A DNA stretch of 64,000 nucleotides, taken from assembly GCA_040289115.1 (NCBI GenBank), contig PSKS01000003.1, forward strand, positions 35,515 through 99,514. Reading direction: 5' to 3'. Position 1 is the first letter of the stretch, and the number at the start of each line of letters is the position of its first letter. Shown in pieces: positions 4,646 through 47,649 of the stretch. Source of the DNA: Chloroflexota bacterium. Lineage in GTDB: Bacteria > Chloroflexota > Dehalococcoidia > JAUQQI01. Below the pieces are notes generated by a model that searched no databases, was not told where the DNA came from, and was given only the letters and a program-made list of their open reading frames with translations. The translations under genes and the position numbers were made by a program.

Positions 4646-4942
4646 GGTGATGCCGTGTGTAAGTTTAGAAACATTTGAGATCAGTGGCCGGCAGCCGAGA
4701 CCTTGACTTAAAAAACAACAGGGACATCTTTCCGGGCGAAACTTCAACCTTAACGTAAACGTTTAGCGTTTACGTTAAGGTTGTCAAGAACGTCAAGTTT
4801 GCGGGCCTGGGAGGTCACCCAGGGCGCTGTTTGGCCCCACCGGGCCGCCTTTGGCGGCCGTCCCCTTGGCTATCTTAAAGCCGAGCACCCGGAAAGGATG
4901 CCCCCTGTCCCGGATGTGTTGAACCTATACACGGATTTGACC
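4646..4942 (+). repeat. Intergenic cassette copy A (MITE-like: TIR-like ends, AT-rich palindrome, GC-rich core, terminal -35 box)
   Basis: Aligns end to end with rc(33285-33592). The core 4791-4942 is 138/152 identical with no gaps (hand count). See findings. Confidence 0.6.
4745..4783. repeat. Perfect 17-bp AT-rich inverted repeat (palindrome family, copy A)
   Basis: CAACCTTAACGTAAACG (4745-4761), loop TTTAG, CGTTTACGTTAAGGTTG (4767-4783). TGTCAA follows at 4782-4787. Confidence 0.9.
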
Positions 4943-4965
4943 AGGGCCGGTTGGGGGCCTAAAAT
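4937..4965 (+). promoter_or_regulatory. Hybrid promoter: -35 from cassette end, local -10
   Basis: TTGACC (4937-4942), 17-nt spacer, TAAAAT (4960-4965). The GT4 ORF start at 4978 is only ~12 nt downstream of the -10. Confidence 0.55.
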
Positions 4966-4977
4966 CGATCCGACGCG

Positions 4978-6258
4978 GTGAGCATCCTGGGAGGCGTACC
5001 GACCGGTGTCGTTCGGCCGGTGGAGGCCGCCTGGCCGGACCTTTCAGCGGGCCGGAAGCGGGCGGCCCGGTCGTACCGGGTCCTGAAAATCGCCCCGACG
5101 GCCTTTTTCTCCGACTACGGCTGCCACGTCCGGATCCTGGAAGAGACTCGGGCCCTGCAGCGGCTCGGCAACCGGGTTGTCATCTGCACCTACAATACTG
5201 GCGCCGACCCGGTCGGCGTCTGCGTCCGGCGGGCCCTTAACACCCCCTGGTGGCGGACGGTCCGGGTTGGGTCGAGCCGGCGCAAGTTTTTCTACGACTT
5301 CTGGCTCCTCCTTAAGGCTTTTGAGACCGCCCTGCTCTTCCGGCCCGATATCATCCACGCCCACTTGCACGAGGGCGCCCTGATCGGCACGCTAATCGGG
5401 CGCATCCTAGGCGTCCCCGTCATCTTCGACTTCCAGGGGAGCCTTACTTCGGAGATGGTCGACCACCGCTTTCTGGACCCTGACAGCCTTTGGTATAGCC
5501 CCCTGCGGCTGCTAGAGTGGGTTATCGACCACTGGGCAGCCGTCATCGTAACCAGCAGCCGCAACGCCGCCGACATCCTGGTCCGGGATTTCGGCTACCC
5601 CCGGGCCAAGGTCAGAACCATCCCCGACTGCGTGGACGCAACGACCTTCAGGCCGCGGTGGCTCCGGGACGACTTGGGGGGAATCGAGCGGCTCCGAAGC
5701 CGGCTGGGCATCCCGCCCGACCGCAAGGTGGTCGTCTACCTCGGGCTCCTGGCCGAGTACCAGGGGATCGGCCTTTTGCTGGAGGCCGCCCGCCGTCTCA
5801 TCGACCGGGGCTTGCCGGTTCACTTTCTCATCATGGGGTTTCCGGGCGAGGAGTTTTACCGGCAGCGGGCCGAGCAGTTGGGCGTCGGTCCGTTCGTAAC
5901 CTTTACCGGCCGGATAAGCTACGCCCTTGCTCCCGACTACCTGCTCCTTGGGGATGTGGCCGTCTCGCCGAAGCTGAGTGAGACTGAGGGCAACGGCAAA
6001 CTGCTTAACTATATGGCTTGCGGCCTGCCTACAGTCGCCTTTGATACGCCGGTGGCCACCGAAATTCTCGGGGACGCCGGGCTCTATGCCCGGGCGGGCG
6101 ATCCCGATTCGCTGGCCGGCCGCATCGCCGAACTGCTCACCGACCCGGTGCGGGCCGAGGCCCTGGGGCGGCGGCTCCGACGGCGGGCGGAGGCCTATTT
6201 CTCCTGGGACTGGGCCGCCCTCCAGTTCGTGGAGCTTTACAAGGAGCTGGTCGGCTGA
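4978..6258 (+). CDS. Glycosyltransferase family 4 (GT-B fold)
   Basis: 426 aa. It has the N-terminal ...YRVLKIAPTAFFSDYGCHV and the C-terminal GT1/GT4 E-x7-E region (SETEGNGKLLNYMACGLPTVAFD). The start codon is uncertain (GTG 4978 or GTG 5020). Confidence 0.85.
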   Translation: MSILGGVPTGVVRPVEAAWPDLSAGRKRAARSYRVLKIAPTAFFSDYGCHVRILEETRALQRLGNRVVICTYNTGADPVGVCVRRALNTPWWRTVRVGSSRRKFFYDFWLLLKAFETALLFRPDIIHAHLHEGALIGTLIGRILGVPVIFDFQGSLTSEMVDHRFLDPDSLWYSPLRLLEWVIDHWAAVIVTSSRNAADILVRDFGYPRAKVRTIPDCVDATTFRPRWLRDDLGGIERLRSRLGIPPDRKVVVYLGLLAEYQGIGLLLEAARRLIDRGLPVHFLIMGFPGEEFYRQRAEQLGVGPFVTFTGRISYALAPDYLLLGDVAVSPKLSETEGNGKLLNYMACGLPTVAFDTPVATEILGDAGLYARAGDPDSLAGRIAELLTDPVRAEALGRRLRRRAEAYFSWDWAALQFVELYKELVG

Positions 6259-29198: not shown

Positions 29199-29245
29199 CA
29201 GTTCATTTCTCCCCTGGGAGGCTGGGATGCCGGGCCATTTTTGAC

Positions 29246-29284
29246 AACCTTAACATAAACACGAAACGTTTATGTTAAGGTTGG
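29246..29284. repeat. Perfect 16-bp AT-rich inverted repeat (palindrome family, solo copy B)
   Basis: CAACCTTAACATAAAC (29246-29261), loop ACGAAAC, GTTTATGTTAAGGTTG (29269-29284). It is flanked by TTGACA (29242-29247) and TGTCAA (29292-29297). Confidence 0.9.
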
Positions 29285-32881: not shown

Positions 32882-33130
32882 ATGAATAAAATCTTCGTGG
32901 GCTGGTGGGGAATAGATCCCCACGTGTTTCGCCGGACCTTTGCCACCAGGCTTTTGGGGGAGGCCGGGGCGGATCCCGTGGTGGCCCTTTAAGGGCACGA
33001 AACTCTTTCGACCGCGGCCCGCTACACGAAACCCTCGGCGCTAAAGCGGCAGGCCGCAAAAGTCATGGAAAGGCGCTTTGGCGAAGATTGCAACCGGATT
33101 CCAGCTGCGAAGCCGCCGGGGTCCGAATGA
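32882..33130 (+). pseudogene. Tyrosine recombinase/integrase C-terminal relic with in-frame stop
   Basis: Translation is ...GIDPHVFRRTFATRLLGEAGADPVVAL*GHETLSTAARYTKPS..., i.e. the box II HxxR...LGH...Y catalytic region. A TAA at 32990 interrupts it. About 250 N-terminal residues are missing. Confidence 0.7.
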
Positions 33131-33176
33131 CCACAATATATCGGGGTCAGATAAGCTTTAGAAGCCAAGATATCGG

Positions 33177-33249
33177 CTGGGGAGCCAGGATTCGAACCTG
33201 GGATCTCCTGATCCAGAGTCAGGCGTGTTACCAGCTACACCACTCCCCA
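33177..33249 (-). tRNA. tRNA-Gln (anticodon CUG)
   Basis: Minus strand: TGGGGAG acceptor, D-arm GTGT..ACAC, anticodon arm CCTGA-CTCTGGA-TCAGG, T-arm CCAGG-TTCGAAT-CCTGG, CTCCCCA-G. No CCA is encoded. Confidence 0.95.
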
Positions 33250-33260
33250 ATGCCAGCCAT

Positions 33261-33290
33261 ATTATATACACGGTCGACGGCGGCGGTCAA
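33261..33290 (-). promoter_or_regulatory. tRNA-Gln promoter: -35 from cassette end, local -10
   Basis: Minus strand TTGACC (33290..33285), 18 nt, TATAAT (33266..33261). The tRNA 5' end is 12 nt after the -10. Confidence 0.65.
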
Positions 33291-33592
33291 ACGCGTGTAT
33301 GGGTTCAACACATCTGGGACAAGGGGCATCCTTTCCGGGTGATCGGCTTTAAGATAACCAAGGGGACGGCCGCCAAAGGCGGCCCGGTGGGGCCGAACGG
33401 TACTCTGGGTTACCGCCCAGGCCCGCAAACTTGACGACTTTGACACAATCGCTTTAATTTTATGTCAAGTTTAGTTTCATCCGGAGGGATGCCCCTCGGG
33501 GTTTTTAAGTCAAGGTTTCGGCTGCCGGCCCGGCCGGTGTAATCGGCTGGGCCGGCCGGGCCGCTGTCTCAATTGTTTCTGAATTTACACAG
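33285..33592 (-). repeat. Intergenic cassette copy D (palindrome degenerated to TTGACA-N17-TGTCAA)
   Basis: Aligns with 4646-4942 (core 138/152). Its left ~90 nt overlap the 3' end and stop codon of CDS 33505..34011. Confidence 0.6.
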
Positions 33593-34011
33593 GTGCGCCC
33601 CAGAAGGATGGGGGCCAGGGTCTCGATGACCTCGGCCATGCGGCCCGCCACCCGTTCCGCCAGCTCCTCGGTCAGGGGCTCCAGCGGCCAGGTCTCGTGG
33701 AGGCGGGTCCAGCTGGAGGTCCACAGCTCCGGCTCAAAGCTTGGCCCAAGCCGGGCGCAGATGTCGAAAAAGTGGGCGTCGAACTCGGCCAGCCAGCGCC
33801 GGTTAGCCTCGGGGTCGGGTAGTTCGAAGTGGAGGCCCAGCTCGATCCGTTTGGCCCCGCCCAGGATCCAGACCTCGAAGTGGACCCTGGGGTCGTCGTA
33901 GTAGAATTTGACGAGGCTGGCCCCGTGCCGGACCTTGAAGCCGGCGAGCTCTGGGGGTAGCCGCCGGCGGATGGCCTCGGGTAGCGCGGCCAGAAACTGC
34001 CAGACCTTCAC
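33505..34011 (-). CDS. Hypothetical protein co-transcribed with glmS
   Basis: 168 aa. Its start overlaps the glmS stop by 4 nt. No domain recognised. The last ~28 codons lie inside cassette copy D. Confidence 0.7.
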   Translation of the reverse strand: MKVWQFLAALPEAIRRRLPPELAGFKVRHGASLVKFYYDDPRVHFEVWILGGAKRIELGLHFELPDPEANRRWLAEFDAHFFDICARLGPSFEPELWTSSWTRLHETWPLEPLTEELAERVAGRMAEVIETLAPILLGRTCVNSETIETAARPAQPITPAGPAAETLT

Positions 34012-35852
34012 TCGACGGTCACAGTCTTGGCCAGGTTCCGGGGCTGGTCGATGTCGCAGCCCCGGCGCAGGGCGATGTGATAGGCCAGCATTTGCAGAGG
34101 TATGACGCTCAGTGCCGGGCTCAGCAGTTCGTCGGTCTCGGGCAAAGGTATGAAGTAGTCGGCTTTGGCCGCAAGGCTTTCGTCGCCCTGGGTCCCCAGG
34201 GCGATGACCACCCCGTCCCGGCTCTTGACCTCGGAAACGTTACCCAGTATCTTGTCATAGACCCGGTCCTTCGGGGCCAGCACGACCACCGGCATCCTCG
34301 AGTCGATAAGGGCGATGGGACCGTGCTTCATCTCGCCGCCGGGATAACCCTCGGCGTGGATGTAGGAGACCTCCTTGAGCTTGAGGGCCCCCTCCAGGGC
34401 GATGGGGTAACTCACCCAGCGGCCCAGGTAAAGAAAATCGCTCATCTCGAAGAAGTTACGGGCGATGGCCCGGACCTGGGCCTCCTGGCCCAACACTTCC
34501 CCCACCAGGGCCGGTAGCCGGATAACCGCCCCCAGCCGCTCCTTAACCGCCTTGGGGCCCAGGGCCCCGTTGGCTTGGCCCAGCCGGACGGCCAGCAGGT
34601 AGAGGCTGACGACGCTGGAAAGGAAGGTTTTGGTGCTGGCGACGGCCATTTCCGGCCCGGCCCGCAGGTCGATAACCCCGTCGGCCAACCTTGTGGCCTG
34701 GCTGCCCATCACGTTGCAGAGGACCACCTGCTTTACCCCCTGCTGGCGGGCCCGGTTCATGGCCTCGAGGGTATCCACCGTTTCCCCCGACTGGGTGATG
34801 GCCACCAGCAGGGTATCCGCTCCTAAAACCAGCTCCCGGGCCCGGAACTCTGACCCGACCTCGGCCTCGGCCGGGACCCTGGCCAGGGATTCGATATAGA
34901 GCTTGCCCAGGAGGGCCGCATGCCAGGAGGTGCCGCAGGCCACGAGAACCACCCGGCGGAAAGCGGCCAGTTCGGTGTCGGTAAAGGGCAGCCCCTCGAA
35001 GGCGACGGTGCCGCCCTCCAGGTCCACCCGGCCCCGCAGGACGTTTAAGACCACCTCGGGCTGTTCGTGAATCTCCTTGAGCATGAAGTGGCTATAACCG
35101 GCCTTGGCCACCGACACCGGGTCGTACGGGCTCAGTTGGGGGGCCTTCTCCACTTCTCGCCCCTCCAGGTCCAGGTAGGTTACCCCGTTTGACCGGAGGA
35201 CGGCCAGCTCGCCACTTTCCAGGTACGCAACCTTCCGGGTGTATGGGAGGATGGCCGGTAGGTCGCTGGCGATATACATTTCGCCGACGCCGTAGCCCAC
35301 CACCAGCCCTCCGGCGTGGCCCAACCTGGCGCCGATTAGCTTGTCCGGTTCGTCTCGGCAGACCGCCAAGAATGCCTGGGCCCCCCGGAGCTCCCGGAGG
35401 GCCAACCGGACGGCGGTCACGAAGTCGGCGCCCGCTTTAAGCTTTGCCTCCACCAGGTGGGCGAAAACCTCGGTGTCGGTCTCCGACCTGAAGACGTGGC
35501 CCTCGGCTTGAAGCATCTGCTTAAGGCTAAGATAGTTTTCGATGATGCCGTTGTGGATTACCACCACGTTGCCGGTGCAGTCGGTGTGGGGGTGGGCGTT
35601 GACGTCGGAGGGTTTGCCGTGGGTGGCCCAGCGGGTGTGGCCGATGGCCACCGGACCGTGAGGGATCTCGCCGTTGAGCTGACTGAGAAGCCGCTCGAGC
35701 TTGCCGGCTTTTTTGGTGATGGCTACCCGACCGCCCGTCTCCAGCACCGCGAGGCCGCAGCTGTCGTAGCCTCGATACTCGAGCCGCTTCAGACCCTCTA
35801 AAACGACCGGTCCGCCCGACCGCTTACCGATGTAGCCCACGATCCCGCACAT
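34008..35852 (-). CDS. glmS: Glutamine--fructose-6-phosphate aminotransferase
   Basis: 614 aa with the MCGIVGY N-terminal nucleophile, two SIS domains and C-terminal NLAKTVTVE. Confidence 0.95.
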   Translation of the reverse strand: MCGIVGYIGKRSGGPVVLEGLKRLEYRGYDSCGLAVLETGGRVAITKKAGKLERLLSQLNGEIPHGPVAIGHTRWATHGKPSDVNAHPHTDCTGNVVVIHNGIIENYLSLKQMLQAEGHVFRSETDTEVFAHLVEAKLKAGADFVTAVRLALRELRGAQAFLAVCRDEPDKLIGARLGHAGGLVVGYGVGEMYIASDLPAILPYTRKVAYLESGELAVLRSNGVTYLDLEGREVEKAPQLSPYDPVSVAKAGYSHFMLKEIHEQPEVVLNVLRGRVDLEGGTVAFEGLPFTDTELAAFRRVVLVACGTSWHAALLGKLYIESLARVPAEAEVGSEFRARELVLGADTLLVAITQSGETVDTLEAMNRARQQGVKQVVLCNVMGSQATRLADGVIDLRAGPEMAVASTKTFLSSVVSLYLLAVRLGQANGALGPKAVKERLGAVIRLPALVGEVLGQEAQVRAIARNFFEMSDFLYLGRWVSYPIALEGALKLKEVSYIHAEGYPGGEMKHGPIALIDSRMPVVVLAPKDRVYDKILGNVSEVKSRDGVVIALGTQGDESLAAKADYFIPLPETDELLSPALSVIPLQMLAYHIALRRGCDIDQPRNLAKTVTVE

Positions 35853-40285: not shown

Positions 40286-40338
40286 CTTAATTCCGCCGCA
40301 GGACGTGGTTCCGTCCCAGGGCTGGTGGGCTGAAGTTG

Positions 40339-40538
40339 TTAACATAAACGCTAAAGATTTTATGTTAAGGTTCGTGCTTATGTCAATAAAGTGCTAAGTT
40401 CGGCGTTTGCGAGGCCAAAGTCTTGCAAATGTCAGTCCTTTTAGCGGGGGACCTAAGGCTTTAAATTCCTCCCACCACCTCTGGGACAGAGTCAACCTAT
40501 ACAGCGCCTTGACATCGGACCGATTATCTGTCAATACT
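40339..40538 (+). repeat. Diverged cassette copy C (10-bp palindrome, TGTCAA, shortened core, -35/-10)
   Basis: TTAACATAAA (40339-40348) and TTTATGTTAA (40359-40368), then TGTCAA at 40381. GTTTGCGAGGCC resembles GTTTGCGGGCC of copy A, and GTCAACCTATACAGCGCCTTGACA resembles GTTGAACCTATACACGGATTTGACC. TTGACA (40509-40514), 18 nt, AATACT. Confidence 0.45.
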
Positions 40539-40634
40539 TATGCGCCGGGCTCGGTGGCGCCCACCCCTCGGCGGTCGGCGTCTAAGCAACCGGGCAAGGC
40601 AAACAATGGTATCGCTCAGGAGGCTCATTAAGCC

Positions 40635-40952
40635 ATGACGGCCTATGTGGATAAGATGCTGACCTGCCGGGACTGTGGGGCCACGTTCGTGTTCTCGGCC
40701 GGCGAACAGTCCTTCTACGCCGCCAAAGGCCTGCAGCACGAACCTCAGCGCTGCCCGACATGCCGGGCCAACCGGCGCCGAGAACGGGCGGGGGTGGAGG
40801 AGCAGCCGGCACGGGAGGCGGGCCGGGGCGTTAGCACCCGGGTCACCTGCGCCAACTGCGGGGCCGAGACCACCGTCCCCTTTGTCCCCCGAAACTCGCG
40901 GCCGGTCTACTGCAGCAGCTGCTACAGCAAGGCCAAAGCCGGGCTCCTTTAG
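40635..40952 (+). CDS. Zinc-ribbon protein (two CxxC...CxxC modules)
   Basis: 105 aa. The modules are CRDCGATFVFSAGEQSFYAAKGLQHEPQRCPTC and CANCGAETTVPFVPRNSRPVYCSSC. They fit the widespread zinc-ribbon / CxxC-x17-CxxC family pattern. Confidence 0.8.
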   Translation: MTAYVDKMLTCRDCGATFVFSAGEQSFYAAKGLQHEPQRCPTCRANRRRERAGVEEQPAREAGRGVSTRVTCANCGAETTVPFVPRNSRPVYCSSCYSKAKAGLL

Positions 40953-43839: not shown

Positions 43840-44834
43840 AATATGCGGCCATCACCGGCTGCGGTCGAGCCTTACCGCGGCGGGTCATCACCAACTTCGA
43901 TTTAGAAAAGCTGGTGGACACCAGCGACGAATGGATCCGCACCCGTACCGGCATCTCCGAACGGCGGGTGGTTTCGGACGACGAGGCCACCTCCGACCTG
44001 GCGGTGGCCGCAGCCCGTCAGGCCGTTGCGGCCGCCCAGCTCGACCCCGCCGACCTGGACCTTATTATCGTCGCCACCTGCACCCCCGACTGGATGTTCC
44101 CCAGCGTCGGGGCGCGGGTCCAGCACGCCCTGGGCGCCAAGCGGGCGGCCGCCTTTGACCTGAACGCCGCCTGTTCCGGCTTCATCTTCGCCCTGGCGAC
44201 CGCAACCCAGTTCATTCGGAACGGGGCGTACCGGCGGGCCCTGGTGGTGGGCAGCGAGGTGCTCTCCCGGGTGGTGGACTGGACCGACCGCAGAACCTGC
44301 GTTCTCTTCGGCGACGGGGCCGGGGCAGTGGTGCTGGAAGCCACCGAGAAGCCCCTGGGCCTTTTGAGCCACGTGCTGGGAACCGACGGTTCCGGCGGGG
44401 AAATCCTTTACCTGCTCGGCCCCACGGCAAGCCCCCGGCAGCGGCAGCAGGCAACCACACCTTATCTATACATGAACGGACCCGAGGTCTTTAAGTTTGC
44501 GGTCAGTGTCACAGTAGCCGCCAGCCGCCAGGTCCTCAACGATGCCGGCTACAGCCTCGAGGACGTTGCCCTCTTCGTGCCCCATCAGGCCAACGAACGG
44601 ATCATCCGGGCCGCGGCCAAGGCGCTGCACTTGCCCCCGGAAAAGGTCTACGTTAACCTGGACCGGTTCGGCAACACCTCGGCTGCGTCGATTCCCATCG
44701 CCCTGGCCGAAGCGGCAGAGACCGGCCGACTCCGGCCCGGTGACCTGGTGCTGCTAGTGGGCTTCGGGGCCGGCCTCACCTGGGCCGCCGGGCTGGTCCG
44801 GTGGGGGAGCCCGAACGGCCTGGCCGCCGGATAA
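43836..44834 (+). CDS. fabH: 3-oxoacyl-ACP synthase III
   Basis: 332 aa with catalytic AACSGF, HQAN and GNTSAASIP motifs. Confidence 0.95.
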   Translation: MKYAAITGCGRALPRRVITNFDLEKLVDTSDEWIRTRTGISERRVVSDDEATSDLAVAAARQAVAAAQLDPADLDLIIVATCTPDWMFPSVGARVQHALGAKRAAAFDLNAACSGFIFALATATQFIRNGAYRRALVVGSEVLSRVVDWTDRRTCVLFGDGAGAVVLEATEKPLGLLSHVLGTDGSGGEILYLLGPTASPRQRQQATTPYLYMNGPEVFKFAVSVTVAASRQVLNDAGYSLEDVALFVPHQANERIIRAAAKALHLPPEKVYVNLDRFGNTSAASIPIALAEAAETGRLRPGDLVLLVGFGAGLTWAAGLVRWGSPNGLAAG

Positions 44835-44847
44835 GTGGCTTATCCGG
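44827..44847 (+). terminator. Hairpin overlapping the fabH stop (weak terminator candidate)
   Basis: CCGGATAAG-TGG-CTTATCCGG (9-bp stem) followed by ATTTGC. The U-tract is poor. Confidence 0.35.
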
Positions 44848-44964
44848 ATTTGCTACCCTCCCCACCCAGCTAACAACTTAGGCAGGGTCCACTACCGGCT
44901 TGTTTTTCACGGGACAAGGTCTTGCGCCTACACTGGGCAGCGGCCACCCCACCGAAGCAGCCGC

Positions 44965-44994
44965 TTGACCACCAGGCAGTAAGGGTGGTATAGT
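44965..44994 (+). promoter_or_regulatory. Promoter of the fibre gene
   Basis: TTGACC (44965-44970), 18 nt, TATAGT (44989-44994). Confidence 0.6.
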
Positions 44995-45063: not shown

Positions 45064-47649
45064 TTGAGGCTTTACTTGGTCCTTGGTCTCCTCGGCTTTC
45101 TGGTCCTTGCCGCCGCCATCGGCCGGGCCGAAGGCCCCCTGCGCCTTAACCCATTGCAGACGCCCCTGGGTGCTGCCTTCAGTTACCAAGGGCAGCTGAC
45201 GTCTGGGGGCACCCCCGTTAACGGCCGCTGCGACTTTCAGTTCCGGCTTTTTGACGGGCCAGACGGAAGCGGACAGGTGGGCCCCACCCTGGAGCGGACC
45301 GGGGTGGAGGTGACCAATGGCTTCTTCGTGGTCCAGCTCGACTTCGGGGCCTCGGCGTTCGACGGCAACGCCCGCTACCTGGAGGTCGGGGTGAGGTGTC
45401 CCTCGGGCTCCGGCACAGCCTACGCCCAGCTTTCCCCCCGCCAGCCCATCACCCCGGCCCCTTACGCCATTTACGCCGCGGCCAGCGGCTCGGCCCGGTC
45501 CCTCCAGGGCTTTCCCCTGGGAAGCCAGGCCCCGACAACGGGTCAGGTGCTCAAGTTCAACGGAACCCAGTGGGTTCCCGCCGAAGATGCCGGTGGGGTC
45601 ACCGTGGCCACAGGCACCGGCCTTACGGCTACCACCTCCGGCATGACGGTCACCCTTGCCATCGCCCCGGCCTTCCGGCTGCCACAGGGGTGTTCGGCAG
45701 CCCAGGTCCCAAGGTGGGACGGCACCGGCTGGACCTGCACCGACGTTTCGGGCTACACCATCGGACCCGGCCTGGTGCTATCGGGCACCGAGCTTCGGGT
45801 TAACTTTGCGGGCACCGGCTCCAGCAACTCGGCCGCCCGCAGCGACCACACCCACGGGGCCACCGATATAGTCACGGGAACCTTGAGTTTGGCCCGGATT
45901 CCCCAGGGTCCGGGAAGCGGCCTCAACGCGGACCTGTTAGACGGCCTCAGCTCGGCGGATTTTGCCCCGGCAACCCACAACCACGACGCCCGCTACTACA
46001 CCAAAACCGAGTCCGACGGGCGCTACCTGGCGGTCACCGGGACGGCCACGAACTCGGCCAGGCTGGGCGGCTTCGACCCGAGCTACTACGCCCCTGCCGA
46101 CCACAACCACGACACCCGGTATCTTTTGATAACTGGGAAGGCTGCAGATGCCGATAAGTTGGACGGCCTCGATTCGACAGCCTTTGCCCGGTCCACCCAC
46201 AACCACGACGACCGCTACCTGGGGTTAACGGCTAAGGCCGCCGACGCCGACAGGCTCGACGGCCTCGATTCGGCCGCATTTGCCCTCGCCAACCACGACC
46301 ACGACAGCCGCTACTACACCAAGGCTGAACTCCAGACTGCCGGCTCAGCCCAGGTAAGCTGGTCCAACCTCACCGGGATTCCGGCCGGCTTCGCCGATAA
46401 CATCGACCACGATACCCTGGGAGCCCTAAACTGCACCGACGGCCAGGGGCCGGTCTGGAGCGCGGCCGCCGGCTGGGGCTGCGGGGGCGGGACAGCTTAC
46501 ACGGCCGGACCCGGTCTGATCCTTAACGGCACCCAGTTCAGCGTTAATTTTGGGGGGAGCGGTGCGGCCACGACGGCGGCCCGGAGCGACCACACCCACG
46601 ACCAGGCCTACTGGCGAACTGGTGGGAACGCCGGCCTGAGCTCGGGAAATAACTTTCTGGGAACCGCCGACAACCTGGGCATAAGCCTCGGGGTGAGCGG
46701 CACCCCAGCCCTGCGAATCCTGCCCGCCAGGGACACCCTCTACGGCTACAGTCCCAACCTGATAGGTGGCCATATCAGCAACACCGTATCGGCTGGGGTC
46801 ATTGGGGCGGTGATCGGCGGGGGCGGAGCGGGGCCAGCCGGGAGCTCCGCCCAGCACAACGCCGTCACCGACCGGTTTGGGACGGTGGGCGGGGGAATGA
46901 TGAACCGGGCCGGAAACGGCGACACCGCCCCCGAAAACGCCGCCTTTGCCACCGTGGCCGGGGGCCTCGACAACGTCGCCAGCGGGATGGCCGCCATGGT
47001 CCCGGGCGGGACCGAAAACCGAGCCGCCGGCAACTTCAGCTTTGCGGCCGGCTACGGGGCCAACGCCGACCACCGTGGGGCCTTCGTCTGGGCCGACTCC
47101 AACGGCTCGGCCTTTCATTCGGAGACCGATAACCAGTTCATTGTCCGGTCCACCGGGGGCGTAAAGTTTGTAACCGGCCTGAGTCCCGTAACTGGAGTCA
47201 AGGTTGACCCCGGGAGCGGAACCTGGGACACCGCCAGCAGTCAGGCCCTCAAGGCCAATTTCGTTGATGTGGACCCCAAGCAGGTCCTCGCCGCCCTGAG
47301 GACCCTGCCGGTCCGCACCTGGAACTACCGGGCCCAGGACCCATCGGTGCGGCACTTGGGTCCCACCGCCGAGGATTTCCGGGCGGCCTTCGGCCTGGGC
47401 GACAGCCCCGCTCACATCTCTACCGTCGACGCCGATGGGGTGGCCTTTGCGGCTATCCAGGGCCTGGGGCAGACGGTCGATGAGCTTCGGGCCGAAAACC
47501 ATGAACTTAAGGAGCGGCTCGGCCGGCTCGAAGCCCGCCTTGACGCTTTGGAGAGCTCCGGGCGAGGCGGCCCAGGAACCTTGGCCGTCGCCGCGGCCGG
47601 AGTTGCCGGCTTGGGGTTAGGGCTGCTTCTCGGCAGGCGCCGGCTCTGA
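45064..47649 (+). CDS. Phage-tail-fibre-like surface protein with HxH repeats, beta-helix region, C-terminal peptidase-S74-type intramolecular chaperone domain and C-terminal TM anchor
   Basis: TTG 45064 is preceded by GGAGGT with 6-nt spacing. The signal-like N-terminus is (M)RLYLVLGLLGFLVLAAAIGRA. There are six HxH motifs (SDHTHG, THNHD x2, DHNHD, NHDHD, SDHTHD). The S74-like segment is ASSQALKANFVDVDPKQVL...HLGPTAEDF...AIQGL plus a coiled coil. The tail is GLGLGLLLGRRRL. Confidence 0.85.
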   Translation: MRLYLVLGLLGFLVLAAAIGRAEGPLRLNPLQTPLGAAFSYQGQLTSGGTPVNGRCDFQFRLFDGPDGSGQVGPTLERTGVEVTNGFFVVQLDFGASAFDGNARYLEVGVRCPSGSGTAYAQLSPRQPITPAPYAIYAAASGSARSLQGFPLGSQAPTTGQVLKFNGTQWVPAEDAGGVTVATGTGLTATTSGMTVTLAIAPAFRLPQGCSAAQVPRWDGTGWTCTDVSGYTIGPGLVLSGTELRVNFAGTGSSNSAARSDHTHGATDIVTGTLSLARIPQGPGSGLNADLLDGLSSADFAPATHNHDARYYTKTESDGRYLAVTGTATNSARLGGFDPSYYAPADHNHDTRYLLITGKAADADKLDGLDSTAFARSTHNHDDRYLGLTAKAADADRLDGLDSAAFALANHDHDSRYYTKAELQTAGSAQVSWSNLTGIPAGFADNIDHDTLGALNCTDGQGPVWSAAAGWGCGGGTAYTAGPGLILNGTQFSVNFGGSGAATTAARSDHTHDQAYWRTGGNAGLSSGNNFLGTADNLGISLGVSGTPALRILPARDTLYGYSPNLIGGHISNTVSAGVIGAVIGGGGAGPAGSSAQHNAVTDRFGTVGGGMMNRAGNGDTAPENAAFATVAGGLDNVASGMAAMVPGGTENRAAGNFSFAAGYGANADHRGAFVWADSNGSAFHSETDNQFIVRSTGGVKFVTGLSPVTGVKVDPGSGTWDTASSQALKANFVDVDPKQVLAALRTLPVRTWNYRAQDPSVRHLGPTAEDFRAAFGLGDSPAHISTVDADGVAFAAIQGLGQTVDELRAENHELKERLGRLEARLDALESSGRGGPGTLAVAAAGVAGLGLGLLLGRRRL

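Follow-up and report, generated by a model that had tools for sequence, protein, structure and literature searches.

The window analysed here is a 64-kb stretch of DNA (64,000 nucleotides) from the GC-rich genome (65% GC) of a Chloroflexota bacterium of the class Dehalococcoidia. Within it, glmS (34008–35852, minus strand) lies upstream of the tRNA-Gln (CTG) gene (33175–33249, minus) on the same strand, and downstream of glmS lies a CDS of 168 aa (33505–34011, minus) that matched no family in Pfam or NCBIfam. Homologues of this CDS align only to approximately residue 139, and its conserved core comprises codons 1–140 (33592–34011, minus). The nearest species-level genome in the reference set is the MAG A0_31, with approximately 89–90% nucleotide identity to the window. 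In an exact search with 72 nt of the tRNA-Gln gene, an identical sequence was found in just four reference genomes, all of them related.

The region on the other side of tRNA-Gln contains a remnant of a tyrosine recombinase, consisting of the C-terminal ~45 residues (32900–33125, plus; PF00589, E 2e-6; in-frame TAA replaced by Leu). The remnant ends approximately 50 nt from the 3' end of tRNA-Gln, and synteny with A0_31 stops at 33157; it is likely the leftover of an element formerly integrated at tRNA-Gln.

Anatomy and distribution of the repeat family

Between the conserved core of the CDS and tRNA-Gln, we delimited a MITE-like, hairpin-forming repeat of 296 bp (copy D; 33296–33591, minus), with its alpha end at 33591 and its beta end at 33296. 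A second full copy of 276 bp (copy A; 4656–4931, plus; inverted ends at 4656–4672 and 4915–4931) aligned with D in inverted orientation over 4656–4942 on the A side with 82–88% identity (BLAST E 9e-70), and over the whole elements 226 of 265 aligned columns matched (85%). The limits of D were set by its inverted ends together with the loss of homology to repeat-free relatives at 33295 and 33591–33595. The 5' ends of A and D read TGTGTAA(G/A)TT(T/C)AGAAAC, and their other ends read TGTGTTGAACC(T/C)ATACA. The 17-nt alpha terminal inverted repeat of D (TGTGTAAATTCAGAAAC; 33575–33591, minus) pairs in folds with the beta terminal inverted repeat (...TGTGTTGAACCCATACA; 33296–33312, minus); these ends are imperfect inverted repeats with TG...CA termini, and the match between them is weak, with only 9–10 of 17 positions complementary.

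The interior of A and D consists of nested inverted arms, an AT-rich palindrome and a highly conserved core that includes 37 identical bases. The palindrome is perfect in A and decayed in D to TTGACA-N17-TGTCAA, which we located at 33440–33468 (minus). A preliminary description of this DNA had reported this decayed form correctly, and was also right in placing the stop codon of the CDS within a conserved box: the ACCTTGACTTAAAAA box that contains the stop is the same in D (33502–33516) and A (4700–4714). A GC-rich hairpin of D (33527–33562, minus) that encodes part of the protein tail is missing from A and is an indel hot spot. Each whole element folds as a single long hairpin on either strand, with z scores of −5.7 to −6.9 (−6.0 to −6.9 for D); such equal folding of both strands is expected of a DNA palindrome and not of a strand-specific RNA. 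Rfam searches with A, D and C (a diverged relative described below) gave nothing at the gathering score and only chance-level matches at E <= 10, and a known RNA family was rejected. An integron cassette with an attC site was likewise rejected, the only recombinase nearby being the 45-residue C-terminal remnant, and the arms CCTTAAC and GTTAAGG being, by reading, a misfit to RYYYAAC and GTTRRRY.

Neither A nor D contains a transposase gene, and the sole ORFs across them encode 66 aa (4781–4981, plus, across the core of A) and 72 aa (33228–33446, minus, across the core of D). In a protein database search these two ORFs had no homologues except one another, so that gene callers probably annotate them spuriously. 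A coding core of the element was rejected, given this lack of homologues and A–D differences that are mostly non-synonymous in the 66/72-aa frame. Promoter scans of A and D gave no internal promoters besides the flanking native ones. Terminator-like hairpins with T-runs were observed inside D (33484–33507, plus, antisense to the CDS) and C (40402–40443, plus).

Two further members of the family are present in the window, giving two full copies (A and D), one variant (C) and one fragment (B). Element C (~40286–40503, plus; left limit approximate) is a diverged relative of A and D, with a beta inverted repeat (...GAGTCAACCTATACA; ACA ending at 40503), a palindrome module (40338–40370) and paired internal arms. 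Its interior differs from that of D and is not alignable with it, its alpha end is not recognisable, and its left side partly resembles the native sequence of one relative. A promoter-like TTGACA-N18-TAAAAT inside C (40357–40386, minus) overlaps the palindrome and is directed back at a 223-aa ORF. Fragment B (29245–29283) is a solo copy of the AT-rich palindrome module, situated without inverted ends between tatA and a fused ABC-permease gene. It is a perfect palindrome, CAACCTTAACATAAAC-N7-GTTTATGTTAAGGTTG, with a minus-strand TTGACA 18 nt from its arm, and may serve as an operator or as a site of recombination. Elements A and C contain the module too. Repeats of another kind occur at 45926–46322 (plus), where three 79-nt direct repeats, 68–77% identical, lie within an 871-aa ORF, which suggests a repeated protein module.

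To examine the prevalence of the family, we searched 185,579 species genomes with an exact 27-mer from the conserved core and a gapped pattern, and obtained no matches. A conserved-core search of JGI metagenomes returned a single match, the organism's own locus, and motif scans of more than 180 fetched loci were positive in conspecific contigs only. There were no copies in the ~9 kb to the right of the window, and no autonomous partner or transposase for elements with TGTGTAAGTTTAG... ends was found in the window or the fetched loci. In relatives, the orthologous sites at the tRNA-Gln, zf_Tbcl, glycosyltransferase and Aminotran_5 promoters are empty; A in particular is missing from its orthologous sites in four relatives on the beta side and in six related loci on the alpha side. 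The family shows several of the features by which a MITE is recognised, namely small size without a transposase gene, terminal inverted repeats (weak in this case), and filled as opposed to empty orthologous sites.

A repeat-derived protein tail and a 6.9-kb inversion

The preliminary description had placed the last ~28 codons of the CDS and its TAA stop within the repeat, and this holds to the base, codon 141 beginning at 33591, where the repeat itself begins. The element-derived C-terminal tail (33505–33591, minus) comprises codons 141–168 (CVNSETIETAARPAQPITPAGPAAETLT) and the TAA at 33505–33507. The accompanying view that the repeat had remodelled the 3' end of a protein gene was upheld when orthologues were compared: at least six related genomes carry another tail, of 40 codons. 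Orthologues at 76–93% identity (76–87% for P0002–P0005) share a conserved 40-residue tail, LTSxRLSVNTYAPGS...ITQEAH, and distant homologues end a few residues after the conserved core. The element-derived tail was found in no orthologue outside the species. As the orthologues share another tail and the distant homologues stop after the core, the repeat-derived tail is not ancestral and A is not a pseudogene fragment.

The opposite reading takes the tail to be ancestral and A to be what is left of a duplicated 3' gene end after decay; it would fit the fact that the A–D alignment begins exactly at the tail. However, A–D homology extends 200 nt beyond the stop codon, the orthologues end otherwise, and the old tail persists in the window at 40506–40631 (plus) as a still open frame (ALTSDRLSVNTYAPGS...AQEAH and stop) with no gene now attached. 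This reading is refuted by the orthologue tails and by the colinear relatives described below, and we leave it virtually no probability. The orphaned tail overlaps the native promoter and leader of the zf_Tbcl gene.

Tail polymorphism was assessed within the 90% protein cluster of the species. The new-tail variants have total lengths of 157, 159, 165, 168 and 200 aa: the 159-aa form results from a 27-nt in-frame deletion (33531–33557, in the GC hairpin) in a conspecific contig (L183), the 165-aa form (P0013) is frameshifted, the 157-aa form has a shorter tail, and the 200-aa form is a stop-loss read-through; a T insertion in the stop-codon box abolishes the stop in one variant. The locus L182 (93% identity) retains the ancestral arrangement, and its old tail ends 11 codons early. 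Given the in-frame deletion, frameshift and stop loss within the species, the new tail looks unselected and, judged from these sequences, is probably functionally neutral. Evidently, no fixed stop closes the domain of the CDS, and the frame runs on into the sequence that happens to follow. For annotation, the 168-aa protein should be regarded as a 139-residue conserved core with a meaningless read-through tail.

The preliminary description, which had seen a single repeat remodel a gene end, missed that the repeat ends are also the junctions of a 6.9-kb inversion. The segment 33592–40503, which contains the CDS core, glmS, an ECF sigma/anti-sigma pair, lytB, a DAO-family gene, the 223-aa ORF and element C, is inverted relative to all relatives. 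We compared eleven metagenome contigs with P0002, P0004 or P0005, four reference MAGs and L182; at least 14 related loci are colinear with the window from 40267 to 33591 and then jump to 40504, continuing to 43168 or beyond. The ancestral order was seen also in L182 (93%) and A0_31 (89–90% nucleotide identity), and the inversion is common to conspecific contigs at 99% identity. Since all related loci examined share the other order, it is the window that carries the derived inversion, and as a consequence of the inversion the old tail now lies at 40506–40631, adjoining the beta end of C at a distance of 6.9 kb, on the strand opposite to the CDS.

Both inversion junctions lie exactly at element termini. 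The relatives read ...CTTCTGGGGC GCGCC TTGACATCGG... at this site (GGGGC GCGCC TTGACA). In the window, with a slash marking the element boundary, the alpha end of D reads ...CTTCTGGGGC GCACC/TGTGTAAATTC... (GGGGC GCACC/TGTGTAA) and the beta end of C reads ...CCTATACA/GCGCC TTGACATCGG... (ATACA/GCGCC TTGACA at 40504). One copy of a 5-bp target duplication is GCACC (33592–33596, minus), which differs from the ancestral GCGCC by one G-to-A change and makes codon 140 ACC, not GCC; the second copy is GCGCC (40504–40508, plus). We read these junction 5-mers as the mark of a single insertion that duplicated 5 bp of its target and whose two ends would later have been separated. The duplication is reconstructible at this single site, where it is split between D and C with a 4/5 match on one side. 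No target duplication spans the two flanks of A or those of D, as would fit a flank exchange at a later time.

How the block was inverted is less clear-cut. The interior of C is too unlike that of D, and a simple C–D crossover is therefore disfavoured. The inversion and the flank exchanges could instead have been made directly by a transposase acting on the abutting ends of neighbouring elements, in an intramolecular reaction such as tandem IS junctions are known to undergo, and not by homologous recombination. The junctions at the very termini rather than inside the elements, the dissimilar interiors of C and D, and the placement of the duplication, with one copy within the inverted block and the other beyond it, as a transposase reaction predicts, all speak for this route. 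On the other hand, it needs C and D to have stood in tandem beforehand, flanked by the 223-aa ORF and tRNA-Gln, an order seen in no relative (argF adjoins tRNA-Gln in relatives), and no transposase is known; we consider the direct route somewhat improbable.

Resident promoters at the beta ends

The promoter of tRNA-Gln (33261–33290, minus) consists of a −35 box TTGACC (33285–33290), an 18-nt spacer and a −10 box TATAAT (33261–33266), and is the sole promoter-like match in 33100–33700. The boxes and their spacing agree with the preliminary description, as does the position of the −10 box just before the tRNA, from whose mature 5' end 11 nt separate it. The same description credited the −35 box to the repeat, so that one repeat unit would give both the CDS tail and a hybrid promoter with a resident −10 box. 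This reading accounts for the alignment of TTGACC between A and D, which ends there, and for the canonical spacing between TTGACC and TATAAT. It failed when repeat-free relatives were examined: TTGACC-N18-TATAAT stands at the same place before the identical tRNA in four of them, and the preceding CGCGT is also identical in A0_31. The homology of A0_31 (locus L092) with the window, as given by BLAST, spans 33157–33295, includes CGCGT-TTGACC and stops one base before the beta end of D; upstream of tRNA-Gln, A0_31 reads GGCGCGTTTGACC...TATATAATATGGCTGGCA. As homology to repeat-free relatives reaches 33295, one base from the repeat end, the −35 box is native. The inverted ends and the empty-site comparisons give the element limits as 33296–33591, and TTGACC at 33285–33290 therefore lies outside the element despite aligning with A.

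The −35 box appears conserved between the copies because A likewise lies 5 nt upstream of a native TTGACC. This box belongs to the promoter of a glycosyltransferase gene (TTGACC-N17-TAAAAT; 4937–4965, plus), which starts 5 nt from the beta end of A. The glycosyltransferase promoter occurs without the repeat in four relatives (L093–L096), including the five preceding bases CGGA(T/A)T, and the homology of these relatives with the window starts at 4932, one base past A. With the −35 box present at empty sites, an element-borne −35 box in a hybrid promoter is refuted, and we assign it a very small residual probability. In annotation, the repeat should not be named as the source of the tRNA-Gln promoter.

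What the element did alter at tRNA-Gln is all sequence upstream of position −41. In the four relatives a divergent carbamoyltransferase gene, which from a reading of its translated N-terminus appears to be argF-like, lies upstream of tRNA-Gln. In the window, tRNA-Gln is now downstream of glmS and the CDS. A scan found no minus-strand terminator between these genes and tRNA-Gln, so that read-through transcription into tRNA-Gln may be possible.

The third beta end, that of C, lies 5 nt before the promoter of the zf_Tbcl gene (TTGACA at 40509–40514, then N18-AATACT), which encodes a treble-clef zinc finger protein (40635–40952, plus). The zf_Tbcl promoter and its ~95-nt leader (40509–40634, plus) are almost invariant, and the relatives' flanking genes differ by 12–25%. 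The leader gave no match in Rfam and is a candidate for a cis-regulatory leader not yet described. Its bases double, in relatives, as the tail of the upstream CDS.

The beta ends of A, D and C all fit AACCYATACA-N5-TTGAC with zero mismatches (3/3), and comparison with repeat-free relatives showed N5 and TTGAC to be native at all three. Given that TTGAC occurs in the window with a frequency of 8.4e-4 per position and strand, three matches at one fixed offset would be expected by chance with a probability of ~6e-10. On the far side of A, D and C there is a gene-order break each time. For A, the prediction was that the alpha flank, which carries a 64-aa zinc-ribbon ORF, had once lain upstream of another TTGAC promoter. 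The zinc-ribbon ORF of six related loci is followed by GGCCGGT-TTGACC-N18-TATACT and then by an Aminotran_5 gene. In an alignment with L187, the closest relative (91% identity), the window diverges at the alpha junction of A 2 nt before TTGACC and not 5, which is near the prediction and inexact.

A further candidate site at 44961–44965 was rejected. The homology of A0_31 resumes there 4 nt before TTGACC-N18-TATAGT, but the site has no repeat and represents a diverged intergenic spacer. This spacer (44830–44960), after a 332-aa ORF that ends at 44834, measures 131 nt in the window versus 58 nt in A0_31, which is ordinary turnover. Because conservation often begins at a −35 box, our junction calls rest on the repeat ends and not on a homology boundary alone.

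The fixed offset also bears on another view of the cassette, as an intergenic module, such as a small RNA gene or a regulatory region with a repressor-binding palindrome, that was duplicated and moved by ordinary recombination. Adjacency to −35 boxes would then be no more than the usual place of a module upstream of promoters. This view draws on the very well conserved core of 37–150 nt with stable local hairpins, on the AT-rich palindrome standing alone in an ordinary intergenic region (B), on the low copy number and the failure to find a transposase, and on the partial likeness of the left side of C to native sequence in a relative. Against it stand the exact 5-nt offset at three junctions, the TG...CA termini, the 5-bp duplication at the one reconstructible insertion site and the absence of the module from all orthologous sites in relatives; for a duplicated RNA module, the lack of an Rfam match and the equal folding of both strands are further objections. 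Given that the palindrome B stands alone and that copies are few, the duplicated-module view keeps a low probability.

A probable mobile element family beside −35 boxes

Short repeats that join or extend host ORFs are known among MITEs, for example the Rickettsia palindromic elements and intragenic ERIC/BOX sequences (PMC10969869). Like these, the present family is a short palindromic non-coding repeat, a transposase-free hairpin, that has entered a host frame and altered the end of a protein. Unlike them, it replaced a 3' tail instead of being inserted in frame within a domain, and the resulting tail is polymorphic and looks neutral; moreover, the family is tiny and present in one species only.

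Correia elements of Neisseria are repeats situated upstream of genes (PMC10969869), and IS elements with an outward −35 box create hybrid promoters (PMC9330008). The present family resembles both in that a small repeat lies directly upstream of genes with a −35-like hexamer at the junction, and differs from the IS hybrid promoters in that −35 and −10 boxes are both resident in repeat-free relatives. Correia elements have a TA duplication and 26-bp inverted repeats, whereas the elements described here have TG...CA ends and, at the one reconstructible site, a 5-bp duplication.

Tn7 has TGT...ACA ends, generates a 5-bp duplication and inserts at a fixed distance and orientation to a recognised sequence. 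Its target site is attTn7 (PMC10969869). The present elements resemble Tn7 in their TGT...ACA termini, a probable 5-bp duplication (seen once, with a 4/5 match), the single orientation and the fixed motif offset, and one copy lies downstream of glmS. By contrast with Tn7, there are no Tns genes or transposase-binding repeat arrays in view, and the element is too short for tnsABC and tnsD/tniQ genes or for repeated TnsB-binding sites. Furthermore, the site lies ~500 nt past glmS and is set by a −35 hexamer and not by the glmS coding end, and there are several targets.

Rearrangements mediated by IS elements or MITEs arise by recombination between copies or through reactive abutted IS ends, as in IS30, IS21 and IS911. 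The gene-order breaks at the copies, the inversion between inverted copies and the duplication split over both junctions are in keeping with such events. The difference is that each breakpoint here lies just upstream of a core promoter and leaves the promoter–gene unit intact. We know of no prior description of breakpoints lying always just upstream of core promoters, and a literature search for elements targeted to −35 boxes found no relevant description. The remodelling of a gene tail by a repeat is ordinary; the interesting part is that every copy stands in a fixed position to a resident promoter.

Taking as firm the limits of the element, the derived nature of the tail, the inversion and the native state of the promoters, we propose that D is probably a ~296-bp non-autonomous, hairpin-forming element of the MITE type, belonging to a small species-restricted family that inserts by −35 boxes and mediates rearrangements. 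From sequence comparison we infer transposition itself, the choice of −35 targets, and the order and mechanism of the rearrangements. The first step would have been the insertion of an element into the 3' tail of the CDS, at a point 5 bp before the zf_Tbcl −35 box, which severed the tail. Element copies would later have reacted with one another, by either homologous recombination or a transposase-mediated intramolecular reaction on abutting ends, and so have inverted the block and brought the CDS beside tRNA-Gln. The CDS tail is then the only casualty, since the ORF of the CDS ran across the zf_Tbcl promoter.

In this proposal, the family would select its target by the −35 hexamer, with a fixed 5-bp offset and the beta end toward the promoter. 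Core promoters and their genes would stay intact and their upstream context would be exchanged: A would link the Aminotran_5 site to the glycosyltransferase site, D would link the zf_Tbcl site to the tRNA-Gln site, and C would hold the remaining zf_Tbcl half-site. Each break falls in the gap from the end of an upstream gene to a core promoter and so leaves transcription units whole, and all three copies may for that reason mark gene-order breaks that became fixed. Tentatively, and with rather less confidence than we place in the classification of D, we suggest a transposable family with an unseen transposase that targets either TTGAC itself or the sigma-bound promoter at a fixed 5-bp offset and in one orientation, and the copies of which recombine and so shuffle promoter–gene units.

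A hexamer common to the copies of a repeat is normally read as part of the repeat, and here it appears to reflect the choice of insertion site. If the −35 offset holds genome-wide, the family would be a clear bacterial case of a mobile element directed at the stretch immediately before core promoters, and this would explain how frequent rearrangements can be fixed without broken transcription units.
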